A stretch of 32,000 nucleotides of DNA from an uncultured archaeon (GTDB taxonomy: Archaea > Iainarchaeota > Iainarchaeia > Iainarchaeales > DATDZZ01). Of this stretch, positions 22,097 to 31,993 are shown piece after piece (positions within the stretch are counted from its first letter, which is position 1; every line of letters begins with the position of its first letter). The notes under the pieces were generated by a model that saw nothing but the letters and a program-made list of their open reading frames with translations, ran no database searches and had not been told where the DNA came from. The DNA lies in NCBI GenBank assembly GCA_964373795.1, contig CAYJVY010000007.1, forward strand, positions 30,001-62,000, read 5' to 3'. Position numbers and translations under genes: made by a program.

Positions 22097-22879
22097 TTAT
22101 ATTAAAGCATTTTTTAATGCGTCTTTGCATTCACATTTTCTTTCTTTTGAAGAATGAATTCTTGGAATAATTTCTGTAATTAATTGTTTTACTTTTTCTG
22201 AATTGTTTTTCATTATTTGAATTATTTCTTCAACTGTAACAGGTTTTTCTGCAAATGAATCAAAATCTGTAACCATTGAAATATTTGCATAACAAATTTC
22301 TGCTTCTCTTGCTAAAACCGCTTCTGGAACCAAAGTCATTCCAATTATTTGAGCACTCCATGAACGAAATAAATTTGATTCAGCTTTAGTGGAAAACCTT
22401 GGTCCTTCAATGCATACATAAGTTCCTTTTTCATGAAATTTTAAATTCAATTTTTTTGCTGAATTAATTAGAGTTTTTCTTAAATCTTCACATATTGGGT
22501 GAGCAGTTGAAATATGACATACTTGGCTTCCCTCAAAAAATGTTTGCTTTCTATTAGTTGTTCTATCAATGAATTGATCTGCAAAAACAAATTCGCCTGG
22601 TTTAATGTTTTCCTGTAATGATCCAACTGCTGAAGGAGCTAAAATGAATTTTACTCCTAATTCTTTTAAAGCCCAAATATTTGCTCTATAATTTACATTT
22701 GATGGGTTGAATTGATGGTTCAAGCCATGTCTTGGAATTATTGCAATTTCTTTTCCTTCATATTTTCCTAATGTAATTAAATCGCTTGGACTTCCAAAAG
22801 GAGTGTGAACTTTTCTTTGGCTTGAATTTGTTAATAGTTTTGGATCGTATATTCCTGTTCCGCCAATTATTCCAATCAT
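22097..22879 (-). CDS. mtnP: S-methyl-5'-thioadenosine phosphorylase
   Basis: 260 aa. MIGIIGGTGIYDP, IPRHGLNHQFNPSNVNYRANIWALKELGV, GMTLVPEAVLAREAEICYA. Confidence 0.9.
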   Translation of the reverse strand: MIGIIGGTGIYDPKLLTNSSQRKVHTPFGSPSDLITLGKYEGKEIAIIPRHGLNHQFNPSNVNYRANIWALKELGVKFILAPSAVGSLQENIKPGEFVFADQFIDRTTNRKQTFFEGSQVCHISTAHPICEDLRKTLINSAKKLNLKFHEKGTYVCIEGPRFSTKAESNLFRSWSAQIIGMTLVPEAVLAREAEICYANISMVTDFDSFAEKPVTVEEIIQIMKNNSEKVKQLITEIIPRIHSSKERKCECKDALKNALI

Positions 22880-22894
22880 GTTTTTTTCACGATT

Positions 22895-23437
22895 TTATTG
22901 ATCTGGTTTTTCGTATTTAATTAAAGAGAAAATATTGTGGCCTTTGAGTTTTTTTCTACCACCAAGCCATTCTAATTCTACTAAAAAAGTTAAATTTTTT
23001 ATGTTTCCTTTTAATTTTTTCACTAGTTTTGTTGCAGCTAAAGCTGTTCCACCTGTTGCAAGTAAGTCATCCACTATTAAAACCGAGTCTCCTTTATCTA
23101 TTCCATCTTCATGGATTTCAATTGAATCAGTTCCATATTCTAATTCATATTCTTGTTTAATTGTTTTAGCTGGAAGTTTTCCGGGTTTTCGTAGAGGAAC
23201 AAAACCTGCATGTAATTCGTTTGCAAGAATTGCTCCAAAAATGAATCCTCTTGATTCAGCTGAAACAACTTTATCAAAATGCAAGTCATGTTCAATATAG
23301 TAATTAATCATTTCATTTACTACATATCTTAGAGTGTGAGCTTCTTTAAGCAAAGTAGTTATGTCATAGTATAATACTCCTTCTCTTGGAAAATCAGGAA
23401 CTTTTCTAATTTTTTGTTTTAAATCTAGTTTAGCCAT
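22895..23437 (-). CDS. apt: Adenine phosphoribosyltransferase
   Basis: MAKLDLKQKIRKVPDFPREGVLYYDITTLL and the PRPP loop VLIVDDLLATGGTALA. The ATG at 23437 is preferred over the ORF-track GTG at 23461. Confidence 0.9.
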   Translation of the reverse strand: MAKLDLKQKIRKVPDFPREGVLYYDITTLLKEAHTLRYVVNEMINYYIEHDLHFDKVVSAESRGFIFGAILANELHAGFVPLRKPGKLPAKTIKQEYELEYGTDSIEIHEDGIDKGDSVLIVDDLLATGGTALAATKLVKKLKGNIKNLTFLVELEWLGGRKKLKGHNIFSLIKYEKPDQ

Positions 23438-23479
23438 TGAATATAAATTAGTAGTTAACACTTTTAATTTTAACTGTTT

Positions 23480-24442
23480 TTAGTTTACTGTTTTTCTCCA
23501 GTAATTCAGTAAATCTTTTAACGTTTGTTCTATTGGAATTTTGGGTTTCCAATTAGTTTCTTTAACAAATTTAGAGTTGTCTCCTAAAAGTTTTGGAATT
23601 AATGCTTGTCTTAATCTTTTTTCATCAACTTTTATTTCAATTTTTTTATTGCTTAATTCTAATAATTTTTTCAATAAATCTTTCATTAAAATTCCTTTTC
23701 CTGAACAAATATTGTATGCTTCTCCTGCTTTGCATTTTTCTGCTGCAAGCCAATAAGCTTTCACCATGTCTCGAACATCGGTGAAATCCCTAACTGTTTC
23801 AAGGTTTCCTACAAAAATAATTGGTTCTTTTTTGCCTTTTTCAATTTCAACTATTTGATGACACCAATCAGAGTCAACTGTTTTAGAGTCTCTTTTAAGG
23901 CCAATGTGATTAAAAGGACGAATTCGAACAATGTTTAATTCATAGCTTTTAAAGTATTGATATCCGAGTAAATCCATTGCTGCTTTGCTTGTTCCGTATG
24001 GAGTTAAAGGCCTAAATGGCTGTGTTTCTTTTATTGGTAATTCATTGTCATAAACTAATCCATATAATTCAGGACTTGAAATTGCAATTACTTTAGTTTT
24101 ATCTGAATATTTTCTTATGCTTTCAAATAAATTAATTGCGCCATCAAAGTTTACTTGAAAGGTTTTTTTAGGGTTTTCAAAAGAATCAGGAACAAATGCA
24201 ACTGCTGCTAAATGAAAAATAATATCTGGTTGAACTTGTTTTATTACTTCGTTTAATTTTTTTTCGTCACAAATATCACATTCAAACAACTTTATTTTGT
24301 TTAAATGTTCTTCTAGTTTTTCAGTGTTTTTCTTATTTCTAATTATTCCGTGAATTTGAGTTTCTTTAACGTTTTTAATTAAAAATTCAACTAAATGACT
24401 TCCTGCAAACCCTCCAATTCCTGTAATTAAAACTTTTTGCAT
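23480..24442 (-). CDS. Extended-SDR NDP-sugar dehydratase/reductase, GDP-4-keto-6-deoxy-D-mannose reductase (Rmd)/GMD-like, paralogue A
   Basis: 320 aa. ITGIGGFAGSHL Rossmann motif, SSPELYG, YxxxK in PYGTSKAAMDL, VGNLETVRDFTDVRDMVKAYWL. The canonical NHTGPRR is degenerate here (NHIGLKR). Confidence 0.85.
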   Translation of the reverse strand: MQKVLITGIGGFAGSHLVEFLIKNVKETQIHGIIRNKKNTEKLEEHLNKIKLFECDICDEKKLNEVIKQVQPDIIFHLAAVAFVPDSFENPKKTFQVNFDGAINLFESIRKYSDKTKVIAISSPELYGLVYDNELPIKETQPFRPLTPYGTSKAAMDLLGYQYFKSYELNIVRIRPFNHIGLKRDSKTVDSDWCHQIVEIEKGKKEPIIFVGNLETVRDFTDVRDMVKAYWLAAEKCKAGEAYNICSGKGILMKDLLKKLLELSNKKIEIKVDEKRLRQALIPKLLGDNSKFVKETNWKPKIPIEQTLKDLLNYWRKTVN

Positions 24443-24529
24443 TCAAATCCATTCTCTAAAAATTGCTTCTAATATATCTTAATTGTTCTTATTAATATTT
24501 TTAAACTATTCTAAGTTTATTTTAAGTGA

Positions 24530-24841
24530 ATGGCTGAGTCAAAATTTTCTGCAATAAACAAATGTAGGTCGTGTGGATCGGAAAATTTAGAGTTTGTTTT
24601 ATCTCTTGGAACTCAATTTGTTTCTGCTTTTGTTGATTCAAATTAAATGGGGAAAAAAACTGTGGGAACTTTAATTCCAATTATTTCTGAAGAACAAGCA
24701 AGAAAAGACAAGCCGAATTATTTTCTTATATTGCCTTGGCATTTTTTGAAAGAATTTAAAGAACGAGAAAAAGATTTCTTGAATTCAGGCGGAAAATTTA
24801 TTGTTCCTCTTCCTGAGTTTAAAATTATTTCTTCTCAATAA
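24530..24841 (+). pseudogene. Remnant of an NDP-sugar C-methyltransferase-type gene: N-terminal Zn-ribbon and C-terminal domain only, joined in frame across a TAA, with the SAM-MTase core missing
   Basis: 24530-24646 encodes MAESKFSAINKCRSCGSENLEFVLSLGTQFVSAFVDSN-stop (CxxCGS...L..VL.LG.Q, the Methyltransf_13-like zinc-binding N-terminus). The next codon (24647), in the same frame, starts MGKKTVGTLIPIISEEQARKDKPNYFLILPWHFLKEFKEREKDFLNSGGKFIVPLPEFKII (Methyltransf_14-like C-terminal tail). Intact homologues as I recall them are about 400 aa. Confidence 0.65.
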
Positions 24842-25850
24842 GTTTAACAATTTTTTTCACGTTTTGAGCTTCATTTTTATGACAAATTAATATTTTATCA
24901 TTGCTTTCGACAATAATTAAGTTTTTTACACCAATTAATCCAATTAATTTTTTTCCAAAAACGATGTTATTTTTTGATTCAATTGCAATTGTTGGAGCAA
25001 TTAATGTATTTTGATTCTCATCTTTTCCAAATTTTCTTTCCAACGCAGTCCAATCTCCTATGTCATCCCAATCAATTGGCGCTTCAACAACACTTAAATT
25101 TAATTCTTTTTCCATTATCCCATAATCAATTGAAATGTTTTCAAGTCCATTAAAAACTTCTTGCATAATTTTTTCATTAAAATTTGATTGCTTTATTTTC
25201 ATTAAACCTTGATATAAGTTTGGCATGAATTGTTTGAATGATTCAAGTATTACTTTTGCTTTAAAAATAAATATACCTGAATTCCATAAAAAGTTTTTTG
25301 ATTCAATGAATTCTTCAGCTTTTTCTTTATTGGGTTTTTCTACAAATCTTTTTACTTCAAAAAGTTTGTCTTTAATTTTGTTTCCTTTTTCAATATATCC
25401 ATACCCAGTTTCTGGACGAGTAGGAGTTATTCCAATTAAAACAATTTTCCCTTTTTCTGCTTCTTTAAAACCAATTTCTAAGTGTTCAAAATATTTTTTA
25501 TTATCTTTATAAGTATGGTCTGATGTTTCAACTAAAATTGTTGCTTCTGGATTTTCACTTAAAATTTTTATAGCACTTAATCCAATGCAGGCAGCAGTAT
25601 TTTTTGCAATTGGCTCTAAAACAAACTTAGCTCTTGGAACGACTTTTTTAATTGGTTCGAACAAGTTTTTTCCAGTTGAAATAAAAATGTTTTTTTCAGG
25701 AATTAATTGAGTTAATCTTTCAACTGTTTCTTCAATCATTGTTTTTTCAGTGAAAATTTTCAAGCATTGTTTTGGAGTTTCCTTTGTTGAAGCAGGCCAA
25801 AATCTTTCACCAAATCCGCCAGCCATTATAACTACAAATCTATTTTGCAT
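24825..25850 (-). CDS. manC: Mannose-1-phosphate guanylyltransferase (nucleotidyltransferase domain only, no C-terminal PMI cupin)
   Basis: 341 aa. VIMAGGFGERFWPAS, PKQCL, LEPIAKNTAACIGL, SDHTY, GITPTRPETGYGYIEKG. Confidence 0.85.
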   Translation of the reverse strand: MQNRFVVIMAGGFGERFWPASTKETPKQCLKIFTEKTMIEETVERLTQLIPEKNIFISTGKNLFEPIKKVVPRAKFVLEPIAKNTAACIGLSAIKILSENPEATILVETSDHTYKDNKKYFEHLEIGFKEAEKGKIVLIGITPTRPETGYGYIEKGNKIKDKLFEVKRFVEKPNKEKAEEFIESKNFLWNSGIFIFKAKVILESFKQFMPNLYQGLMKIKQSNFNEKIMQEVFNGLENISIDYGIMEKELNLSVVEAPIDWDDIGDWTALERKFGKDENQNTLIAPTIAIESKNNIVFGKKLIGLIGVKNLIIVESNDKILICHKNEAQNVKKIVKLIEKK

Positions 25851-26808
25851 TTACTTTTTCTCTCCAGTAATTCAGTAAGTCTTTTAATGTCTGCTCAAAT
25901 GGGATTTCTGGTTTCCAGCCTGTTTGTTTTATGAATTTAGTTGAATCACATAAAAGTAATGGCACATCACTTGGACGCATTCTTGAAGGATCTTTAACTA
26001 TTTCGATTTTTATCTTTGTTAACTTTAAAAGCATTTGTTGTAGTTCCTTCATTGAATAAGCTTTTCCTGTTCCAATATTATATTCTTCTCCTGGAACCCC
26101 TTTTTCTGCAGCTAAATAATATGCTTTAACAATGTCTCTTACGTCAGTGAAATCTCTTCTTGCATCTAAGTTTCCACAGAATAATTTTGGTTCTCTTTTT
26201 TTTGCTTCAATTTCAGCTATTTGTTTACACCAATTGCTTGCAACATATACTTGTCCTCTTCTAGGCCCTGTGTGATTGAATGCTCTTGTTCTAACTATTT
26301 TTAATCCATAGCTTTTAAAGTATTGATATCCAAATAAATCTGTTGCAACCTTGCTTACTCCGTAAGGACTTAAAGGTCTTAAAGGATTTGATTCTTTTAT
26401 TGGAACCTCATTTTCTAAAACTAATCCATATTCTTCACTTGATCCAGCTAAATGAATTTGTGGATTTAATTCTAGTCTTCTTAATGCTTCAAGCAAGTTA
26501 ACTGTTCCAAAAATATTTGAATTAATTGTTTCGTGTGGAGCAAGCCAAGACTTTGGAACAAATGCTTGAGCAGCTAAATGAAAAACATAATCTGGTTGAG
26601 ATTGTTTTAATGAATCCAAAACAGTATTTTGATCAGTTAAATCACATTCAAATAATTTTACTTTATCTAAAATATGTTTAATGTTGTCTAGTTTTGCATT
26701 ATATGTTCTAATAGTTCCATGTACTTCTCCTAATTTGTTACTCAAAATATAATCAGCTAAATGGCTTCCTGCAAAGCCTGTAATGCCAGTAATAAAAAAT
26801 TTCTTCAT
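25840..26808 (-). CDS. Extended-SDR NDP-sugar dehydratase/reductase, Rmd/GMD-like, paralogue B
   Basis: 322 aa. ITGITGFAGSHL, GSSEEYG, PYGVSKVATDL, FNHTGPRRG, CGNLDARRDFTDVRDIVKAYYL, RPSDVP, TGWKPEIPFE. Overlaps manC by 11 nt and the upstream GT4 gene by 4 nt. Confidence 0.88.
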   Translation of the reverse strand: MKKFFITGITGFAGSHLADYILSNKLGEVHGTIRTYNAKLDNIKHILDKVKLFECDLTDQNTVLDSLKQSQPDYVFHLAAQAFVPKSWLAPHETINSNIFGTVNLLEALRRLELNPQIHLAGSSEEYGLVLENEVPIKESNPLRPLSPYGVSKVATDLFGYQYFKSYGLKIVRTRAFNHTGPRRGQVYVASNWCKQIAEIEAKKREPKLFCGNLDARRDFTDVRDIVKAYYLAAEKGVPGEEYNIGTGKAYSMKELQQMLLKLTKIKIEIVKDPSRMRPSDVPLLLCDSTKFIKQTGWKPEIPFEQTLKDLLNYWREKVNAK

Positions 26809-27932
26809 TTTTCTTCCTCCAGTTCTTTTTCATAAACCTCAATAAATTTATTAATATTTTCTTTCCAATCAAACCTTTTAACAAAGTTTGAAGCATTTAC
26901 GACAATTTTTTGCTTCTCTTTATTGTCTAAATTTATTATTTCATTAATTTTTTTAGCAGCATTTTCATGATTTGAATAATCGACTAAAAAACCATTAGTA
27001 TTATTATTAATTATGGTTCGAAATTGGTTTATATTATTTACGATTGGAATTAATTTTACAGTCATTCCTTCAATTAATGAAATTCCAAAACCTTCAAATT
27101 CTGAAGCCGAAACAAAATATTCCGCTTTTGCAAGTTCTTGTAATAAATCTTTTTCATTTCTTTCACCTAGTAAAAACACGTTTTTTTGTAATTTGTTTTC
27201 TTGAATTAATTCTGTTAACTCGTTAGTTAATCCATGAAAGTCTTTTCCAATTATTTTTAATTTCACGTTTGAATTTAATTTAATCAGTTCTGCAAATGTT
27301 ATAATTAAGTTGTCTACCCGTTTGTTTTTTGAGATTCTTCCAACAAAAATAAACGAATTTTTTTCCTGCTTTTTTTTTAGTTTAAATTTTTCTAGATTGA
27401 ATGGAATTTCAATTACTCCTAAATTTTCTTTCTTAACTATCTTCGAAAAACTTTCAAAATCAGTTTTACCAATAGCTAAAATATGTGACTTGTTTAGTGA
27501 AAACTTTAACCACAAATTAAAATAAATCCATTTTATAATACTTAATTTTCGTGTATGAAATATTCCTCCTCCTGTAGAGACAACTAGTTTTTTCGAATGC
27601 AATCCAAGCAATTTTGTTAAAATTAAATAATCTGCAAAAAAACCCAATCCGTGAATATGGATTAAATCAAATTCTTTTACAAAACTTAAAACCTTTAAAG
27701 CGATTTTATAATATTTTAAATCAATAAAAGGAATTCTGTGAATTTTAATGCCTTCTTCAAAAGATGCCTCTAGCAATATTTCATCCGAGTTATGGCATTT
27801 ATTTAAGCAGACAATTTCTGAATAGATTCCTTTTTTATTTAATTCTTTTGCCAACTCCAATACATATGTTTCAATTCCGCCAATGCATGGAAAAACATGA
27901 TTTGTCACATGTAATACTTTGAATTTTTTCAT
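26805..27932 (-). CDS. GT-B fold glycosyltransferase, family 4-like
   Basis: 375 aa. GGIETYV near the N-terminus, FVGRISKNKRVDNLI, and the EX7E-type region SEFEGFGISLIEGM. Confidence 0.85.
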   Translation of the reverse strand: MKKFKVLHVTNHVFPCIGGIETYVLELAKELNKKGIYSEIVCLNKCHNSDEILLEASFEEGIKIHRIPFIDLKYYKIALKVLSFVKEFDLIHIHGLGFFADYLILTKLLGLHSKKLVVSTGGGIFHTRKLSIIKWIYFNLWLKFSLNKSHILAIGKTDFESFSKIVKKENLGVIEIPFNLEKFKLKKKQEKNSFIFVGRISKNKRVDNLIITFAELIKLNSNVKLKIIGKDFHGLTNELTELIQENKLQKNVFLLGERNEKDLLQELAKAEYFVSASEFEGFGISLIEGMTVKLIPIVNNINQFRTIINNNTNGFLVDYSNHENAAKKINEIINLDNKEKQKIVVNASNFVKRFDWKENINKFIEVYEKELEEEK

Positions 27933-28892
27933 TTAATTCGCCTTCAAATAACCTGTAATTAATCCTGTACAAAAAGCAATTGTTCTAATAAATAACATAA
28001 ATGGACTAATTAGCGCAACTAAAAAATTTTTTTGCAATGCAAATAATGTGAAAGGAATAAAACTCAAAAACAATGCTGTAAACAGAATGAAGACAATCAT
28101 TATTAGGGGTAAATAAATTATTGAAAAAATTAAAAATAATGGAATTAAATATCCTAATAGAATTTGGATTTTCATTAATTGAGGGGTATAAGAATCTTTC
28201 ACAATTTTTTCTTTAAAGTTCTTGTATAATTTTACTCTCCAAAAAGCGCGAAAAAATTTTACTTTAATATATTTCCATAAAGAGGTTGGATGGAAGTGAA
28301 ATACCATTGCCAAGGGGTTAAATATTAGTTTAGCTCCTTTTTTTGCAAGCTTAAAACTTAAATCAGGATCCTCTCCTGAGGCAATAGGGTATGATTCATC
28401 AAATCCTTTTACTTGCATAAATTCTTTTTTTCGGTATGCACAGCAATAACTTCCAATAAAGTCAATGAATTTATTTTTTTTCATTAAATTATATCTGTCT
28501 TCTATTTCTAATTGAATGAAATTAGCTATTAGTGATTTTTGTTTTGTTTTATATGTTCCTTGAACGCCAATTATTTTTTTATCTTTGAATGGTTTTAATA
28601 ATTCTTTTAACATGTTTTTATCCGCTTCGCAATCGGCATCAGTGAATATGATTATTTCTCCATGAGCTTTTAATGCTCCAAGATTTCTTGCAGTAGCTGG
28701 TCCTTTGTTTTTTTGATAAAAATATTTTACTTTTGAAAACTTTTTTACAACTTCTTTTGTTTTATCAGTTGAACCGTCGTCTACCACAATTATTTCAAAT
28801 GGTTCTAGAAAGCTTTGATTTAGCAATGACTTAATGCATGTTTCAATTCTTTTTTCTTCATTAAATGCTGGAACTATAATTGATGCATTCAT
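27933..28892 (-). CDS. GT-A fold glycosyltransferase, family 2, with C-terminal membrane helices (dolichyl-phosphate-sugar-synthase-like architecture)
   Basis: 319 aa. SIIVPAFNEEKRIETCIKSLLNQ, EIIVVDDGSTDKT, FTDADC, GEDPDL, then about three hydrophobic helices. The stop abuts the GT4 start (TAA-ATG on the minus strand). Confidence 0.85.
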   Translation of the reverse strand: MNASIIVPAFNEEKRIETCIKSLLNQSFLEPFEIIVVDDGSTDKTKEVVKKFSKVKYFYQKNKGPATARNLGALKAHGEIIIFTDADCEADKNMLKELLKPFKDKKIIGVQGTYKTKQKSLIANFIQLEIEDRYNLMKKNKFIDFIGSYCCAYRKKEFMQVKGFDESYPIASGEDPDLSFKLAKKGAKLIFNPLAMVFHFHPTSLWKYIKVKFFRAFWRVKLYKNFKEKIVKDSYTPQLMKIQILLGYLIPLFLIFSIIYLPLIMIVFILFTALFLSFIPFTLFALQKNFLVALISPFMLFIRTIAFCTGLITGYLKAN

Positions 28893-28946
28893 ATTTAGAT
28901 CTCAATGAAATTAAATTTAAATCCAAACTAGTACAAAATTAATTCT

Positions 28947-29753
28947 TTAAAGCATTGCTTTTGCTTTTTTAACATCATTTTTTGAGTTAATATTAATGTA
29001 TATTCCTTGAAATGGGTATCCTAAAAGTAATCCTTTTTTTGCTAGTTTTGGAAAAAAATCTTTTTCAATGCTTTTCATGTCTCTTGAAATGTATTTATAT
29101 ATTTCGGGTTCAAATAAAAAATGTCCTGCTGAAACTAAATAGCTTTTAACTTCTTTTTTTGGTTTTTGAATGAATTCCTTTATTTTGTTTCCTTCAAGTA
29201 TTACTACTCCGTAATTTTTTGGATTTGAAACAGTGGTTAACGCAATTGTTGCAATTGAATTATTTTTTTTATGAAAAGTTAGCATGTCATTTAAATTTAG
29301 TGAACAAATGGTGTTTCCATATGAAACCAAAAAAGTGTCATCAAATAATTCTTTTACTTTGAATAATGGCTCCATTGTTCCTTCAGGTTTTTCGTTTAAA
29401 ATAAAGTTAACATTGTACTCTAGCTTTTTTGAAGTTAATTTGTTTTGGATTTCATTTTGTTTAAAATCCAAGTATAATTGAAAATTATTTGCGCCAAACT
29501 CACTTATTCTACTTAATACAGTTTCCAAAACAGTTTTTCCGTTCAAGTCAACTAAAGCAATTGGTTTTTTGTCAACCTCTTCTTTTCCACCAGCTAAAAC
29601 TAAAACGTTTTTTAATTTAAAATCGGTTAAAAATTTTGTTAAAAGATACTCTATTGCTTGACTTCTGCTTCTAATTGTTAATCCATCAATTATTCTATCA
29701 ACTTGTTTTACTACGTCGTTTTTAATTGTAATAGTTATTCTATCGCGTTTCAT
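28947..29753 (-). CDS. Fusion protein: N-terminal ribbon-helix-helix (CopG/NikR-like) DNA-binding domain plus sugar-phosphate nucleotidyltransferase-fold domain with a degenerate signature loop
   Basis: 268 aa. RHH: MKRDRITITIKNDVVKQVDRIIDGLTIRSRSQAIEYLLTKFL (beta-strand, then a NikR-like RS-xAI motif). NTase fold: VLVLAGGKEEVDKKPIALVDLNGKTVLE...NYGVVILEGNKIKEFIQKP...SAGHFLFEPEIYKYI. The canonical GGxGTRLxPLT is replaced by GGKEEVDKKP. Confidence 0.75.
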   Translation of the reverse strand: MKRDRITITIKNDVVKQVDRIIDGLTIRSRSQAIEYLLTKFLTDFKLKNVLVLAGGKEEVDKKPIALVDLNGKTVLETVLSRISEFGANNFQLYLDFKQNEIQNKLTSKKLEYNVNFILNEKPEGTMEPLFKVKELFDDTFLVSYGNTICSLNLNDMLTFHKKNNSIATIALTTVSNPKNYGVVILEGNKIKEFIQKPKKEVKSYLVSAGHFLFEPEIYKYISRDMKSIEKDFFPKLAKKGLLLGYPFQGIYININSKNDVKKAKAML

Positions 29754-29806
29754 TTTTTCACTTTTTCGAGATTTGTATTAATTAAGTTTAAGAACTTCTT
29801 TTACTT

Positions 29807-29825
29807 AATCATACTATATATGATT
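29807..29825. promoter_or_regulatory. Inverted repeat AATCATA-N5-TATGATT in the divergent promoter; candidate RHH operator overlapping TATA-like sequence
   Basis: Seen directly at 29807-29813 and 29819-29825, centred on CTATA. It lies 54 nt upstream of the RHH-NTase ATG (29753) and 68 nt upstream of the ugd TTG (29893). Short AT-rich palindromes are common by chance. Confidence 0.2.
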
Positions 29826-29892
29826 GTTTTATTAATTTAAAGTTTTTCTTAATGGATTGTTTTACTTTTTAATCTTTTTATGAAGTGATTGC

Positions 29893-31191
29893 TTGAAGAT
29901 TTGCGTTATTGGAGTAGGCTATGTAGGATTAGTTGTTGGAACTTGTTTAGCTGAATTAGGAAACGATGTTATTTGTGTTGACTCTGATAAAGACAAAATT
30001 AATAAATTAAATAAAGGAGTTATTCCAATTTATGAGCCAGGATTGAAAGAATTAGTTGATAGAAGTGTTCGAGAAAAAAGATTGTTTTTTTCTATTGATG
30101 CTGATTCAAGTATTCAAAAATCTGGAGTAATTTTTATTGCAGTTGGAACTCCTCAAGGAAGTAAAGGAAAAGCTGATTTAACTAGTATATTCAATGTTGC
30201 TGAAAGAATTGGTCAAAACTTGAATGAATATAAAGTTGTTGTAGTGAAGTCTACAGTGCCTGTTGGAACAACTGAAAAAGTAAGGCAATTAATTAAAAAA
30301 AATTCTTTAAATAAAAATGGGTTCGATGTTGTCTCTAATCCAGAGTTTTTAAGGGAAGGCGAAGCAGTAAACGATTTTTTGTTTCCAGATAGAGTTGTAA
30401 TTGGAGTTGAAAGTGAGAAAGCAAAGAAAAAATTGGAAGAACTTTATAGTGGAATTGTTCGAATTAAAAGGCCTTTAATTATAACTGATGTGAAAAGTGC
30501 TGAAATGATTAAATATGCTGCTAATTCTATGCTTGCAACAAGAATTTCTTTTATGAATGAAATTGCTCGTTTGTGTGAAAAAGTTGGAGCAGACGTTAAA
30601 ATTGTTTCAAAAGGAATTGGCTTGGATTCAAGGATTGGGCCAAGATTTTTGCAAGCAGGAGCAGGTTATGGTGGGAGTTGTTTTCCAAAGGATGTTCAAG
30701 CTTTTATTAAAACAGCTGAGGAGAATGGAATTGAATTCAAAATTTTAAAAGCAGTTGAAAAAGTAAATGAAGAGCAAAAAAAGTCTTTGTTTGAAAAATT
30801 GAAGAAATTTATTCCAAATTTGAATGGAAAAAAAATTGCGTTATGTGGTTTAGCTTTCAAGCCTAAAACTGATGACATTAGAGAAGCTCCTGCGCTTACT
30901 TTAATTAATCAATTATTAAATGAAGGAGCAATTGTTCAAGCCTTTGATCCTGAAGCAGAAAATAATATAAAAAAAGTTTTTCCTCAAATAAAGTGTTGTT
31001 CAACTCCTTATAATGCTCTTGAAGGTTGTTCTGCATTAGTAATTGTAACAGAATGGAATGAATTTAGAAACCTAGATAAAGAAAAAATTAAATCCTTATT
31101 ACTTGAACCAGTAATTGTGGATGGAAGAAATGTTTACGAGCCAAAAGAAATGAAAGAATTGGGGTTTAAGTATGTTGGAATTGGAAGGTGA
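29893..31191 (+). CDS. ugd: UDP-glucose 6-dehydrogenase
   Basis: 432 aa. TTG start preceded by AGTGA. KICVIGVGYVGLVVGTCLAELGNDVICVD, NPEFLREG, GGSCFPKD (catalytic Cys), GLAFKPKTDDIREAP. Confidence 0.93.
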   Translation: MKICVIGVGYVGLVVGTCLAELGNDVICVDSDKDKINKLNKGVIPIYEPGLKELVDRSVREKRLFFSIDADSSIQKSGVIFIAVGTPQGSKGKADLTSIFNVAERIGQNLNEYKVVVVKSTVPVGTTEKVRQLIKKNSLNKNGFDVVSNPEFLREGEAVNDFLFPDRVVIGVESEKAKKKLEELYSGIVRIKRPLIITDVKSAEMIKYAANSMLATRISFMNEIARLCEKVGADVKIVSKGIGLDSRIGPRFLQAGAGYGGSCFPKDVQAFIKTAEENGIEFKILKAVEKVNEEQKKSLFEKLKKFIPNLNGKKIALCGLAFKPKTDDIREAPALTLINQLLNEGAIVQAFDPEAENNIKKVFPQIKCCSTPYNALEGCSALVIVTEWNEFRNLDKEKIKSLLLEPVIVDGRNVYEPKEMKELGFKYVGIGR

Positions 31192-31195
31192 ATAG

Positions 31196-31993
31196 TTGAA
31201 AGCAATTTTATTGGCTGCAGGTTATGCTACTAGAATGTATCCATTAACCTTGAATACTCCTAAGGCTTTGCTTAAAATTGGAGAAAAAACTATTATTGAC
31301 TTCATTATTGAAAAGTTATTAGAAATAGATGTTGATGAAATCTTTATTGTTTCAAATGAAAAATTTTATCCAGAGTTTATTAAATGGAAGGAAAACAGTA
31401 ATTATTCCATTCCAATTCAGGTTTTCAATGATCAAACCAAATCAAATGATGATAAATTGGGTTCTATTGGAGACATTGATTTTGTATTAAAAAAAACAAA
31501 TTTATTTGACAAATTTCTTGTAATTAATGCTGATAACTTGTTTGATTTTAGTTTAATTGAAGTATTTAATTTTTTTAAGAAAAAAAATAAATGTGTTATT
31601 GGATTATATGATGTTGGTTGGCTTGAAGAAGCAAAAAAATTGGGGGTTGTAGAAATTGATAAAAACAATAAATTAATTGGGTTTGAAGAAAAACCGGAAA
31701 ACCCTTCATCTACTTTAGCTTCGACTGGAATTTATTTCTTTCCACCAAATATTGGTGAATTAATCAGGCAATATTTAGAAGAAGGAAATAACCCTGACAA
31801 GTCAGGAAAATTTATTGACTGGCTTTATCAAAGAGAGCCAGTGTATGGAATAGTTTTCAAAGGAAAATGGTTTGATATTGGTTCTTTAGAGTCTTTTGAG
31901 CAGGCAAAAAAAGAGTTTTTAAACAAGACTTCAATGTCAGAAAAAGTTGTAGTTTTAGATGACAAGGAAAAAAGCGGAAGTTTTTTTGATTAA
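31196..31993 (+). CDS. Sugar-1-phosphate nucleotidyltransferase (glucose-1-phosphate thymidylyl/uridylyltransferase-like)
   Basis: 265 aa. TTG start preceded by GGTGA. ILLAAGYATRMYPLTLNTPKALL signature loop, INADNL, GVVEIDKNNKLIGFEEKP, WFDIGS. Confidence 0.85.
   Translation: MKAILLAAGYATRMYPLTLNTPKALLKIGEKTIIDFIIEKLLEIDVDEIFIVSNEKFYPEFIKWKENSNYSIPIQVFNDQTKSNDDKLGSIGDIDFVLKKTNLFDKFLVINADNLFDFSLIEVFNFFKKKNKCVIGLYDVGWLEEAKKLGVVEIDKNNKLIGFEEKPENPSSTLASTGIYFFPPNIGELIRQYLEEGNNPDKSGKFIDWLYQREPVYGIVFKGKWFDIGSLESFEQAKKEFLNKTSMSEKVVVLDDKEKSGSFFD

Follow-up and report, generated by a model that had tools for sequence, protein, structure and literature searches.

We analysed in silico a window of 32,000 nucleotides from an uncultured archaeon of the Iainarchaeales (assembly GCA_964373795.1, contig CAYJVY010000007.1, positions 30,001 to 62,000 of the forward strand). 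The gene under study, at 28947-29753 of the window, joins a ribbon-helix-helix (RHH) DNA-binding domain to the fold of a sugar-1-phosphate nucleotidyltransferase (NTase), and we refer to it as RHH-NTase. An earlier note on this DNA had proposed that its product is a one-component regulator with a pseudo-enzyme sensor domain. The gene and the features within it are listed here; clades A and B are the two branches of the family described below, and VTC1 is the Arabidopsis enzyme used as reference.

28947..29753, minus strand: RHH-NTase gene, stop codon included, encoding 268 amino acids from an ATG start (open reading frame call and homologues).
29616..29753, minus strand: RHH DNA-binding domain, residues 1-46 (NikR profile match, RHH_1 on the isolated domain, structural model).
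28950..29612, minus strand: C-terminal NTase-fold domain (Pfam, NCBIfam, VTC1/GMPPB alignment, AlphaFold model, Foldseek).
29562..29591, minus strand: degenerate beta1 loop G55-G-K-E-E-V-D-K-K-P64, in place of GGxGTRLxPLTxxxP and five residues shorter (alignment).
29559..29561, minus strand: I65 at the position of VTC1 Lys23, a contact for pyrophosphate (PPi) or phosphate; occupied by K or R throughout the rest of clade A (32 proteins).
29313..29315, minus strand: N147 at the position of the catalytic VTC1 Asp111; D in the 32 other clade-A and 27/27 clade-B proteins.
28992..28994, minus strand: N254, corresponding to VTC1 Asp219; an N throughout clade A (33/33).

Two independent sequencing runs (ERR4904391 and ERR3478686) yielded contigs that encode an identical 268-residue protein, and its odd residues are therefore not read errors. 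The full-length fusion was kept in more than 120 protein clusters of ∼270 residues at 44-70% identity; the named clusters were all labelled 'sugar phosphate nucleotidyltransferase' or similar and came from metagenome-assembled genomes of Diapherotrites/Iainarchaeum or Aenigmarchaeota. The phylogenetic survey that the earlier note had suggested, a scan of one genome per GTDB species, recovered the complete fusion from ∼60 species, all of them DPANN archaea and falling into two clades, and matches from other phyla began at residue 30-50 or later and thus without the RHH domain. Because it is conserved at full length in so many clusters and species, the pairing is not due to chance. Full-text literature searches returned no description of a protein joining an RHH domain to a sugar NTase. 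When the RHH domain alone was used to search for other fused sensors, 73 representatives were obtained; the ten of atypical length, scanned against Pfam, consisted of seven RHH-NTase fragments, one RHH domain alone and two proteins with no Pfam match.

The assignment of the N-terminus to the NikR/CopG-like RHH domains was borne out. The segment comprises a beta-strand (R5-I-T-I-T-I10), helices at residues 12-21 and 30-44, and the turn G24-x-x-x-R-S-R-S, and thus has the strand, the two helices and the G-x-x-x-(R/N)-S turn of the superfamily. A profile of the family's N-terminal domain matched E. coli NikR (1q5v) with E=3.5e-6 over residues 2-43, P. horikoshii NikR with E=0.016 and CopG with E=0.03. 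Pfam RHH_1 remained under threshold on the whole window protein (17.6 bits, E=0.0037) and passed on the N-terminal 48 residues alone (22.2 bits against a cutoff of 20.5); it was matched by 27/35 family N-termini. Within clade A the RHH domain was the best-conserved segment, with a column conservation of 0.77.

The C-terminal domain has the GT-A-like Rossmann fold of the sugar-1-phosphate nucleotidyltransferases (PF00483). Pfam NTP_transferase matched residues 68-232 (E=1e-22) from profile position 25 onwards, and hence without the N-terminal signature loop. An AlphaFold model of the monomer, built on 26 homologues, reached a mean predicted local distance difference test (pLDDT) value of 84.7, and from residue 51 all 10-residue block means were at least 80 and mostly at least 90. 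Foldseek against the PDB returned Arabidopsis VTC1 and human GMPPB as best matches (E ∼1e-19, template-modelling (TM) score 0.74, root-mean-square deviation 2.0-2.5 Å over 228 columns), followed for the large domain by RmlA, GalU, HddC and ST0452. None of the NCBIfam equivalog models was reached; the best, Arch_glmU, scored 88 bits against a cutoff of 292, and the others lay far below theirs.

Active-site residues were scored from a phmmer alignment to VTC1/GMPPB. In VTC1, Gly9, Thr12, Arg13 and Lys23 form the PPi site, Asp111, Glu195-Lys196 and Asp219 are catalytically critical, and residue 80, Gly85, Asn109, Tyr145-Gly146, Glu162, Asn173 and Trp217 contact GDP-mannose (PMC9168903). The window protein reads LAGG-KEEVDKKP-IALV where intact relatives read LAGG-xGTRLxPITxEIPK-PLV, so that the signature G-x-G-T-R-x(5-9)-P-K has become GGKEEVDKKPI and Thr-Arg is gone. 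Lys23 is replaced by I65, and both catalytic or metal-binding acidic residues, Asp111 and Asp219, are replaced by asparagine (N147 and N254). Retained are Gly55-Gly56, Gly125, Tyr181-Gly182, Lys197 and Glu230-Lys231, which include the sugar-phosphate contacts corresponding to VTC1 Lys163 and Glu195-Lys196 (K197, E230 and K231). This scoring, which the earlier note had proposed, upheld its description of a core fold that is kept while GGKEEVDKKP occupies the place of the catalytic loop.

An alignment of the family separated the two clades. Clade A (33 proteins, window included) comes from Iainarchaeia and Aenigmatarchaeota, and clade B (27 proteins) from Woese-, Nano- and Parvarchaeota. The two differ as follows (VTC1 numbering).

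GxGTR loop: lost in 33/33 of clade A, where its length is 7-13; intact in 21 of clade B, as LAGGxGTRLxPITxEIPKP.
Guanine-binding Glu (residue 80): G, S, L or A in clade A; Glu in 27/27 of clade B.
Asn109 position: Tyr in 27/33 of clade A; Asn in 27/27 of clade B.
Asp111 position: Asp in 32/33 of clade A; Asp in 27/27 of clade B.
Trp217 position: Tyr in 25/33 of clade A; Trp in 27/27 of clade B.
Asp219 position: Asn in 33/33 of clade A; Asp in 13 and Asn in 10 of clade B.
Gly221 position: Asn in 33/33 of clade A; Gly in 20/27 of clade B.

In clade A the column conservation of the loop was 0.30, compared with 0.63 across the remaining NTase domain. G125, G182, K197, N254 and N256 were invariant (33/33) and E230 nearly so (32/33). 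The most conserved motifs across the 33 species line the pocket (YGDT, TIALTTVSNP..YG, EKPK, SAGxF, SxEKD and FQGxYxNxN), and the remodelled pocket residues were fixed coherently (Y145 in 27/33, N254 and N256 in 33/33). From these conserved pocket motifs we infer that the remodelled active site probably binds a nucleotide sugar. The window protein is the sole clade-A member that also lacks the Lys23 and Asp111 equivalents.

Most clade-B members retain the full set of active-site residues known from GDP-mannose pyrophosphorylase. Six clade-B proteins have lost the loop. Four of these group beside an intact member in a neighbour-joining tree without support values, which suggests that the loop was lost repeatedly. 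One clade-B subclade (L048, L051, L053, L054, L057, L058, L060-L062 and L064) combines an intact GVGTRLQPIT loop with Asn at the second metal Asp (GQWYNTG).

Five Iainarchaeial genomes carry, in addition to the clade-A gene, a clade-B-type paralogue of 281 amino acids with an intact loop (GGKGTRLRPLT..PKP), ∼1.7-2.3 kb downstream; the offsets from the clade-A gene start are +2306 (L014), +1670 (L020), +1730 (L021), +1804 (L022) and +2296 (L025). The paralogue has its own TATA box and TCATA-N5-TATGA-N5-TATGA operator, and heads a string of genes for an NTase, a gmd-like short-chain dehydrogenase/reductase (SDR), APRT and MTAP, the SDR being 63% identical to that at 25840-26808 of the window. 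The window has matching SDR, APRT and MTAP genes (22097-26808), but manC where its relatives have the intact paralogue. The sequence comparison makes it likely that an enzyme was first fused to the RHH domain and that its active site was dismantled and its pocket coherently retuned afterwards. Loss of the loop throughout clade A supports the pseudo-enzyme reading of the earlier note; the fusion itself was not a pseudo-enzyme invention, since in clade B and the paralogues this RHH is joined to an NTase that is fully intact.

The DNA upstream of the window gene was aligned with that of orthologous loci to derive an operator. In front of the orthologues we found a conserved element, TCATA-N5-TATGA-N5-TATGA. 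In nearly all loci it follows an archaeal TATA box (TTTAAATA) at a distance of 9-11 nt, and a stretch rich in purines and resembling the transcription factor B recognition element (BRE) comes before that box. The core palindrome TCATA-N5-TATGA lay within 100 nt upstream in 27/32 clade-A loci when at most one mismatch was allowed, and was exact in 20/32. Across these 32 loci the 3.4 kb within [-100,+5] windows contained 27 copies and the other 348 kb contained 17, or 7.96 against 0.049 per kb, a ∼163-fold enrichment; five of the 17 sites elsewhere are the operators of intact paralogues and have the same geometry. The modal operator position in clade A is -21, which puts the ATG inside the third half-site and implies an mRNA that is leaderless or nearly so. 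The same half-site recurs in clade B. Most often it forms direct repeats (TCATAC-N4-TCATAC) immediately before the BRE/TATA, with a density of 4.25 compared with 0.094 per kb, and inverted repeats are present in other members. In the window two promoter features were assigned.

29799..29823, minus strand: predicted operator TCATA-tatag-TATGA-ttaag-TAAAA (conserved in orthologues; position weight matrix (PWM)).
29834..29841, minus strand: archaeal TATA-like box TTTAAATT, 10 nt upstream of the operator (position conserved in orthologous spacers; putative function).

The perfect palindrome of the window operator, at 29809-29823, is the sole exact TCATA-N5-TATGA in the 32 kb, with 0.06 expected from shuffles. 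The repeated short boxes at the gene's own promoter, enriched in clade A and unique in the window, are a further trait of the RHH superfamily. A PWM built from other species only gave the site 17.5 bits and found no second site above 8 bits in the 32-kb window, which therefore contains no other operator-bearing gene. The TATA-like box is preceded by a purine-rich, BRE-like stretch (AAGAAAAAC). An operator between TATA box and start site occupies the standard position of archaeal repressors that block recruitment of RNA polymerase. A scan for bacterial promoters and terminators returned fewer sigma-70-like sites than shuffles and, the organism being archaeal, is uninformative.

An inverted repeat at 29781-29809 had also been considered as operator and was rejected, being absent from orthologous spacers, where the conserved element is the adjacent TCATA-N5-TATGA. 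Its 14-nt arms (ATTAAGTTTAAGAA and TTCTTTTACTTAAT) are 86% complementary and 1 nt apart; it sits in the presumed RHH-NTase 5' leader, overlaps the degenerate third half-site, and may represent a hairpin in the leader, a second site for a protein or a chance occurrence in DNA of 29% GC. In one orthologous locus (L004, 7863-8013) operator and gene start are separated by a 69-nt tandem repeat of 2.2 copies, with 75% matches and with units similar to the 5' end of the RHH-NTase gene. In another (L011, 5360-5995) an ORF resembling an S-adenosylmethionine-dependent methyltransferase is inserted between the two, and the gene starts with GTG after AGGTGA. Separately, a palindromic element, GCGGATTTT-TCATACnnnGTATGAnnnnGTATGA-AAAATCCGC, was seen at four places on one 680-kb contig (L107, L124, L155 and L159) and in other samples (L091, L098, L138 and L160), and adjoins no RHH-NTase gene.

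The genes on either side of RHH-NTase are the following.

29893..31191, plus strand: divergent UDP-glucose 6-dehydrogenase gene (ugd), a conserved neighbour and candidate target.
31196..31993, plus strand: NTase gene, second in the ugd operon, with the near-canonical loop LAAGYATRM.
24825..28892, minus strand: downstream genes for family 2 and family 4 glycosyltransferases (GT2, GT4), a gmd-like SDR and manC, on the same strand as RHH-NTase.

RHH-NTase is divergent from ugd in 28/32 clade-A loci, with a spacer of 60-190 nt, and ugd is usually followed by genes for a class-V fructose-1,6-bisphosphatase (FBPase), an NTase, and an SDR epimerase or decarboxylase-like protein. Orthologues of the NTase at 31196 are 44-53% identical and hold the same position in most clade-A loci. 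Separate intact NTases are present alongside the clade-A genes and would supply the catalysis, which speaks for the pseudo-enzyme reading. In the LAAGYATRM loop of the window copy the Gly positions of the canonical LAGGxGTRL are altered, and Thr and Arg are kept. The FBPase gene (Pfam FBPase_3) lies between ugd and the NTase gene in L003, L004, L009 and most clade-A loci and links the gluconeogenic supply of hexose phosphate with the divergent ugd promoter. The window lacks the FBPase gene, and there the NTase gene directly follows ugd. The shortest ugd/RHH-NTase spacers have a single TATA-like box, 27-35 nt from the ugd start. We hypothesize that this box may be shared, in which case the operator would, for transcription towards ugd, lie immediately before the BRE.

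The genes downstream of RHH-NTase vary: the window and a few Aenigmatarchaeota have GT2, and other loci have a plain NTase, an apurinic/apyrimidinic endonuclease or ParA. Because they differ between loci, the glycosyltransferase string is not a conserved partner. The neighbours named in the earlier note (GT2, GT4, SDR and manC downstream; ugd and an NTase divergent) are all present, but the role given to RHH-NTase there, as head of a glycosylation operon, is not conserved. From the stop of RHH-NTase to the start of GT2 there are 54 nt (28893-28946). This gap contains a TATA-like TTTAAATT on the minus strand at 28914-28921, 21 nt ahead of the GT2 ATG, and GT2-GT4-SDR-manC may therefore have a leaderless promoter of its own. 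A TCATT-N10-TATGA also occurs in the gap, its second box containing the ATG, but it departs from the operator's 10-nt register.

Among solved structures, the N-terminal domain is most closely related to NikR (E. coli 1q5v/2hzv, P. horikoshii 2bj1; E=3.5e-6 to the E. coli protein), with which the family shares the recognition strand R-V-T-I-T (R-[VI]-T-[IL]-T in the family). The E. coli NikR operator is GTATGA-N16-TCATAC (PMC7055735), and its half-site GTATGA/TCATAC is that of the RHH-NTase operator. Both proteins also follow the same logic of an N-terminal RHH followed by a C-terminal ligand-binding oligomerization domain, both functions being presumed for RHH-NTase. The C-terminal domain is ACT-like and nickel-binding in NikR and a 220-residue sugar-NTase fold in the window protein; NikR half-sites are 16 bp apart and face inward, whereas those of RHH-NTase are 5 bp apart, in a 10-bp register and in three copies; and NikR senses metal in bacteria and euryarchaea and does not regulate sugar metabolism. 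Lacking both the ACT-like tetramerization domain with its high-affinity His/Cys nickel site and the ∼16-bp operator spacing, the window protein is not a NikR. At four metagenome loci (L122, L130, L131 and L137), among the matches listed by a scan with the operator, we noted an unrelated RHH protein of ∼120 residues (MSKLVRVTITLPKDLLDAAD...RSRSWVVAEALR) that begins with MSKLVRVTITL and whose start codon lies within the third half-site of the same element, TCATAC-N3-GTATGA-N4-GTATGA. This suggests a general recognition rule, by which an R-V-T-I-T strand corresponds to GTATGA in NikR, the RHH-NTases and this third RHH family.

For the C-terminal domain a conceptual precedent exists in GMPPA, a non-catalytic paralogue of GDP-mannose pyrophosphorylase that binds the product nucleotide sugar for feedback (PMC11228364, PMC9168903). 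Like GMPPA and plant KONJAC, the proposed sensor would be an NTase fold without catalysis, and GMPPA-related GMPPB and VTC1 are its best structural matches. GMPPA differs in acting allosterically on GMPPB through hetero-oligomers mediated by a beta-helix, and in having no DNA-binding domain. The window protein has no beta-helix domain: it ends at residue 268, directly after the Rossmann-like domain, and its alignments to GMPPB end at about residue 224 of 360.

Several repressors combine a DNA-binding domain with an enzyme of the regulated pathway, among them PutA (RHH and proline catabolic enzymes), BirA (a winged helix-turn-helix and biotin ligase) and NadR (a helix-turn-helix and nicotinamide mononucleotide adenylyltransferase). 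RHH-NTase has the same architecture, with PutA sharing its type of DNA-binding domain; however, the enzymes of these three are active and belong to other families, whereas in the window protein neither the catalytic loop nor the catalytic Asp is left. By analogy, clade-B relatives with an intact active site would probably work like PutA, BirA and NadR. B. subtilis PurR has a phosphoribosyltransferase-fold domain without phosphoribosyltransferase activity, and phosphoribosyl pyrophosphate inhibits its DNA binding. The proposed regulator would resemble PurR in that its effector domain is an enzyme fold that has kept ligand binding and lost catalysis, and differs from it in DNA-binding domain, enzyme fold and domain of life. 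Finally, Arc, Mnt, CopG and MetJ place RHH dimers on adjacent short boxes along one face of the DNA at their own promoters, as proposed here; they are single-domain proteins (MetJ with its S-adenosylmethionine corepressor bound in the RHH fold), and RHH-NTase adds an enzyme-derived domain of 220 residues.

Taken together, we think it fairly probable that RHH-NTase is an autoregulated one-component repressor of DPANN archaea with an NTase-derived domain that probably senses nucleotide sugars. Although annotated in databases as an enzyme, the protein is probably a transcription factor that has yet to be described. In the mechanism that we propose, the NikR-like RHH would dimerize and bind TCATA/TATGA half-sites spaced 10 bp apart, and occupancy of the operator between the TATA box and the transcription/translation start of its own gene would block recruitment of RNA polymerase. 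The C-terminal domain would descend from an NTase of the GDP-hexose pyrophosphorylase type that was already fused to the RHH. In clade A the GxGTR loop, which grips the triphosphate, was lost and the pocket for base and sugar remodelled, while the motifs that contact the nucleotide sugar stayed under strong constraint; the domain would then most likely be non-catalytic, bind a nucleotide sugar or a precursor, and provide higher-order oligomerization. As RHH-NTase is almost always divergent from ugd across a spacer of 60-190 nt, the operator probably also tunes the divergent operon of the UDP-glucuronate branch, ugd-(FBPase)-NTase-epimerase, which would result in feedback control of nucleotide-sugar supply. 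The operator conserved at the TATA box, the divergence from ugd in 28/32 loci and the loss of the loop in 33/33 proteins all agree with the one-component regulator, acting on its own promoter and/or that of ugd, envisaged in the earlier note.

Several observations weigh against this reading. DNA binding and repression are argued from comparative genomics. The RHH domain was modelled with low confidence in the monomer (block-mean pLDDT 45-59, ∼45 for residues 1-10), as would be expected because the RHH strand should fold only in the dimer. In the window itself the third half-site is degenerate (TAAAA), and a leader of ∼47 nt with a Shine-Dalgarno-like GTGA separates operator and ATG, unlike in most orthologues. 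A metagenome-wide scan with an operator of 17 specified bases had been meant to find regulon members; among the matches listed, 6/85 sites lay directly upstream of an RHH-NTase gene, and the motif is thus not family-specific. The other sites are other elements or chance occurrences, and the scan is uninformative about a regulon. The Asn at the Asp219 position is also present in clade-B members with an intact loop, and N254 alone is therefore weak evidence of inactivity. Lastly, the 32 clade-A proteins other than that of the window keep K or R at Lys23 and D at Asp111, as well as K197 and E230-K231, and their loop is rich in Lys and Arg; with these residues kept and a basic loop, residual or altered catalysis is possible within clade A.

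These last residues also fit the main rival reading, a bifunctional enzyme-repressor of the BirA, NadR and PutA type, in which the NTase would still make a nucleotide sugar through a non-canonical basic loop and the RHH would autoregulate. The equivalents of Lys23, Asp111, Lys163 and Glu195 are retained in 32-33/33 clade-A proteins, whose loop often begins with K or R, and clade B and the Iainarchaeial paralogues join the same RHH and the same operator half-site to NTases that keep every canonical residue, so that the ancestral state was probably bifunctional. Nevertheless we regard present-day bifunctionality in clade A as unlikely: the GxGTR loop, which binds PPi/triphosphate (VTC1 Gly9, Thr12 and Arg13; PMC9168903), is absent, variable and unconserved there, and the guanine-binding Glu found in 27/27 clade-B proteins is lost. 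It is least probable in the window protein, where Lys23 and the catalytic Asp (N147) are missing as well and where the best equivalog score is 88 bits when 292 are needed; clade B itself, judged by its residues, is probably bifunctional. A ligand-blind constitutive autorepressor, in which the dead NTase fold would serve as an oligomerization scaffold, appears less likely still. RHH proteins do need partner domains or cooperativity to occupy tandem sites, and the window protein has lost two residues that its clade keeps, as if ligand contacts were dispensable in its lineage, but pocket-lining motifs that are the most conserved across 33 species, with remodelled residues coherently fixed, fit a binding site.

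An artefact (a chance RHH match, a mis-called start or an assembly chimera) might be suspected from the sub-threshold RHH_1 score of the full-length protein. Such an origin is refuted by the conservation of the full-length protein in more than 120 clusters and ∼60 species with the RHH as best-conserved segment (0.77), by the NikR profile match, by an operator and a TATA box that are conserved immediately in front of the called start, and by the identical protein in two samples, and we give it practically no weight. Equally negligible is a toxin-antitoxin-like module, an RHH antitoxin fused to a nucleotidyltransferase toxin. RHH domains and 'nucleotidyltransferases' do co-occur in the toxin-antitoxin literature, but Foldseek assigned the domain to the GT-A-like sugar-1-phosphate NTases (VTC1/GMPPB/RmlA) and not to the minimal Pol-beta type, which led us to reject this reading, and the conserved context is nucleotide-sugar metabolism.

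Returning to the sensor-repressor, we tentatively outline a fuller history, of which we are rather less sure. A DPANN family would have arisen by fusion of a GDP-hexose pyrophosphorylase to a NikR-type RHH and worked first as a bifunctional enzyme-repressor, a state surviving in Woese-, Nano- and Parvarchaeota and in the Iainarchaeial paralogue. In Iainarchaeia and Aenigmatarchaeota, perhaps more than once (judging from the unsupported neighbour-joining tree), the active site would have been dismantled and the pocket retuned, giving a pure nucleotide-sugar sensor on a TATA-proximal operator shared with ugd. In the shortest spacers, of 60-70 nt, one quasi-palindromic TATA box might serve both genes; whether the operator is occupied would then decide if transcription runs towards the regulator or towards the UDP-glucuronate pathway.

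DPANN archaea have tiny genomes and almost no transcription factors with a predicted function. RHH-NTase brings to them a predicted operator, a predicted target in a nucleotide-sugar pathway and a testable class of ligand, and nucleotide sugars feed the cell envelope, which mediates contact with the host. The family makes the conversion of an enzyme into a sensor visible, with intact and dismantled fusions on the same operator half-site coexisting in the same genomes. The annotation 'sugar phosphate nucleotidyltransferase' inflates the apparent biosynthetic capacity of these organisms and hides a regulator, and the link between R-V-T-I-T and GTATGA could help to assign operators to other RHH proteins.

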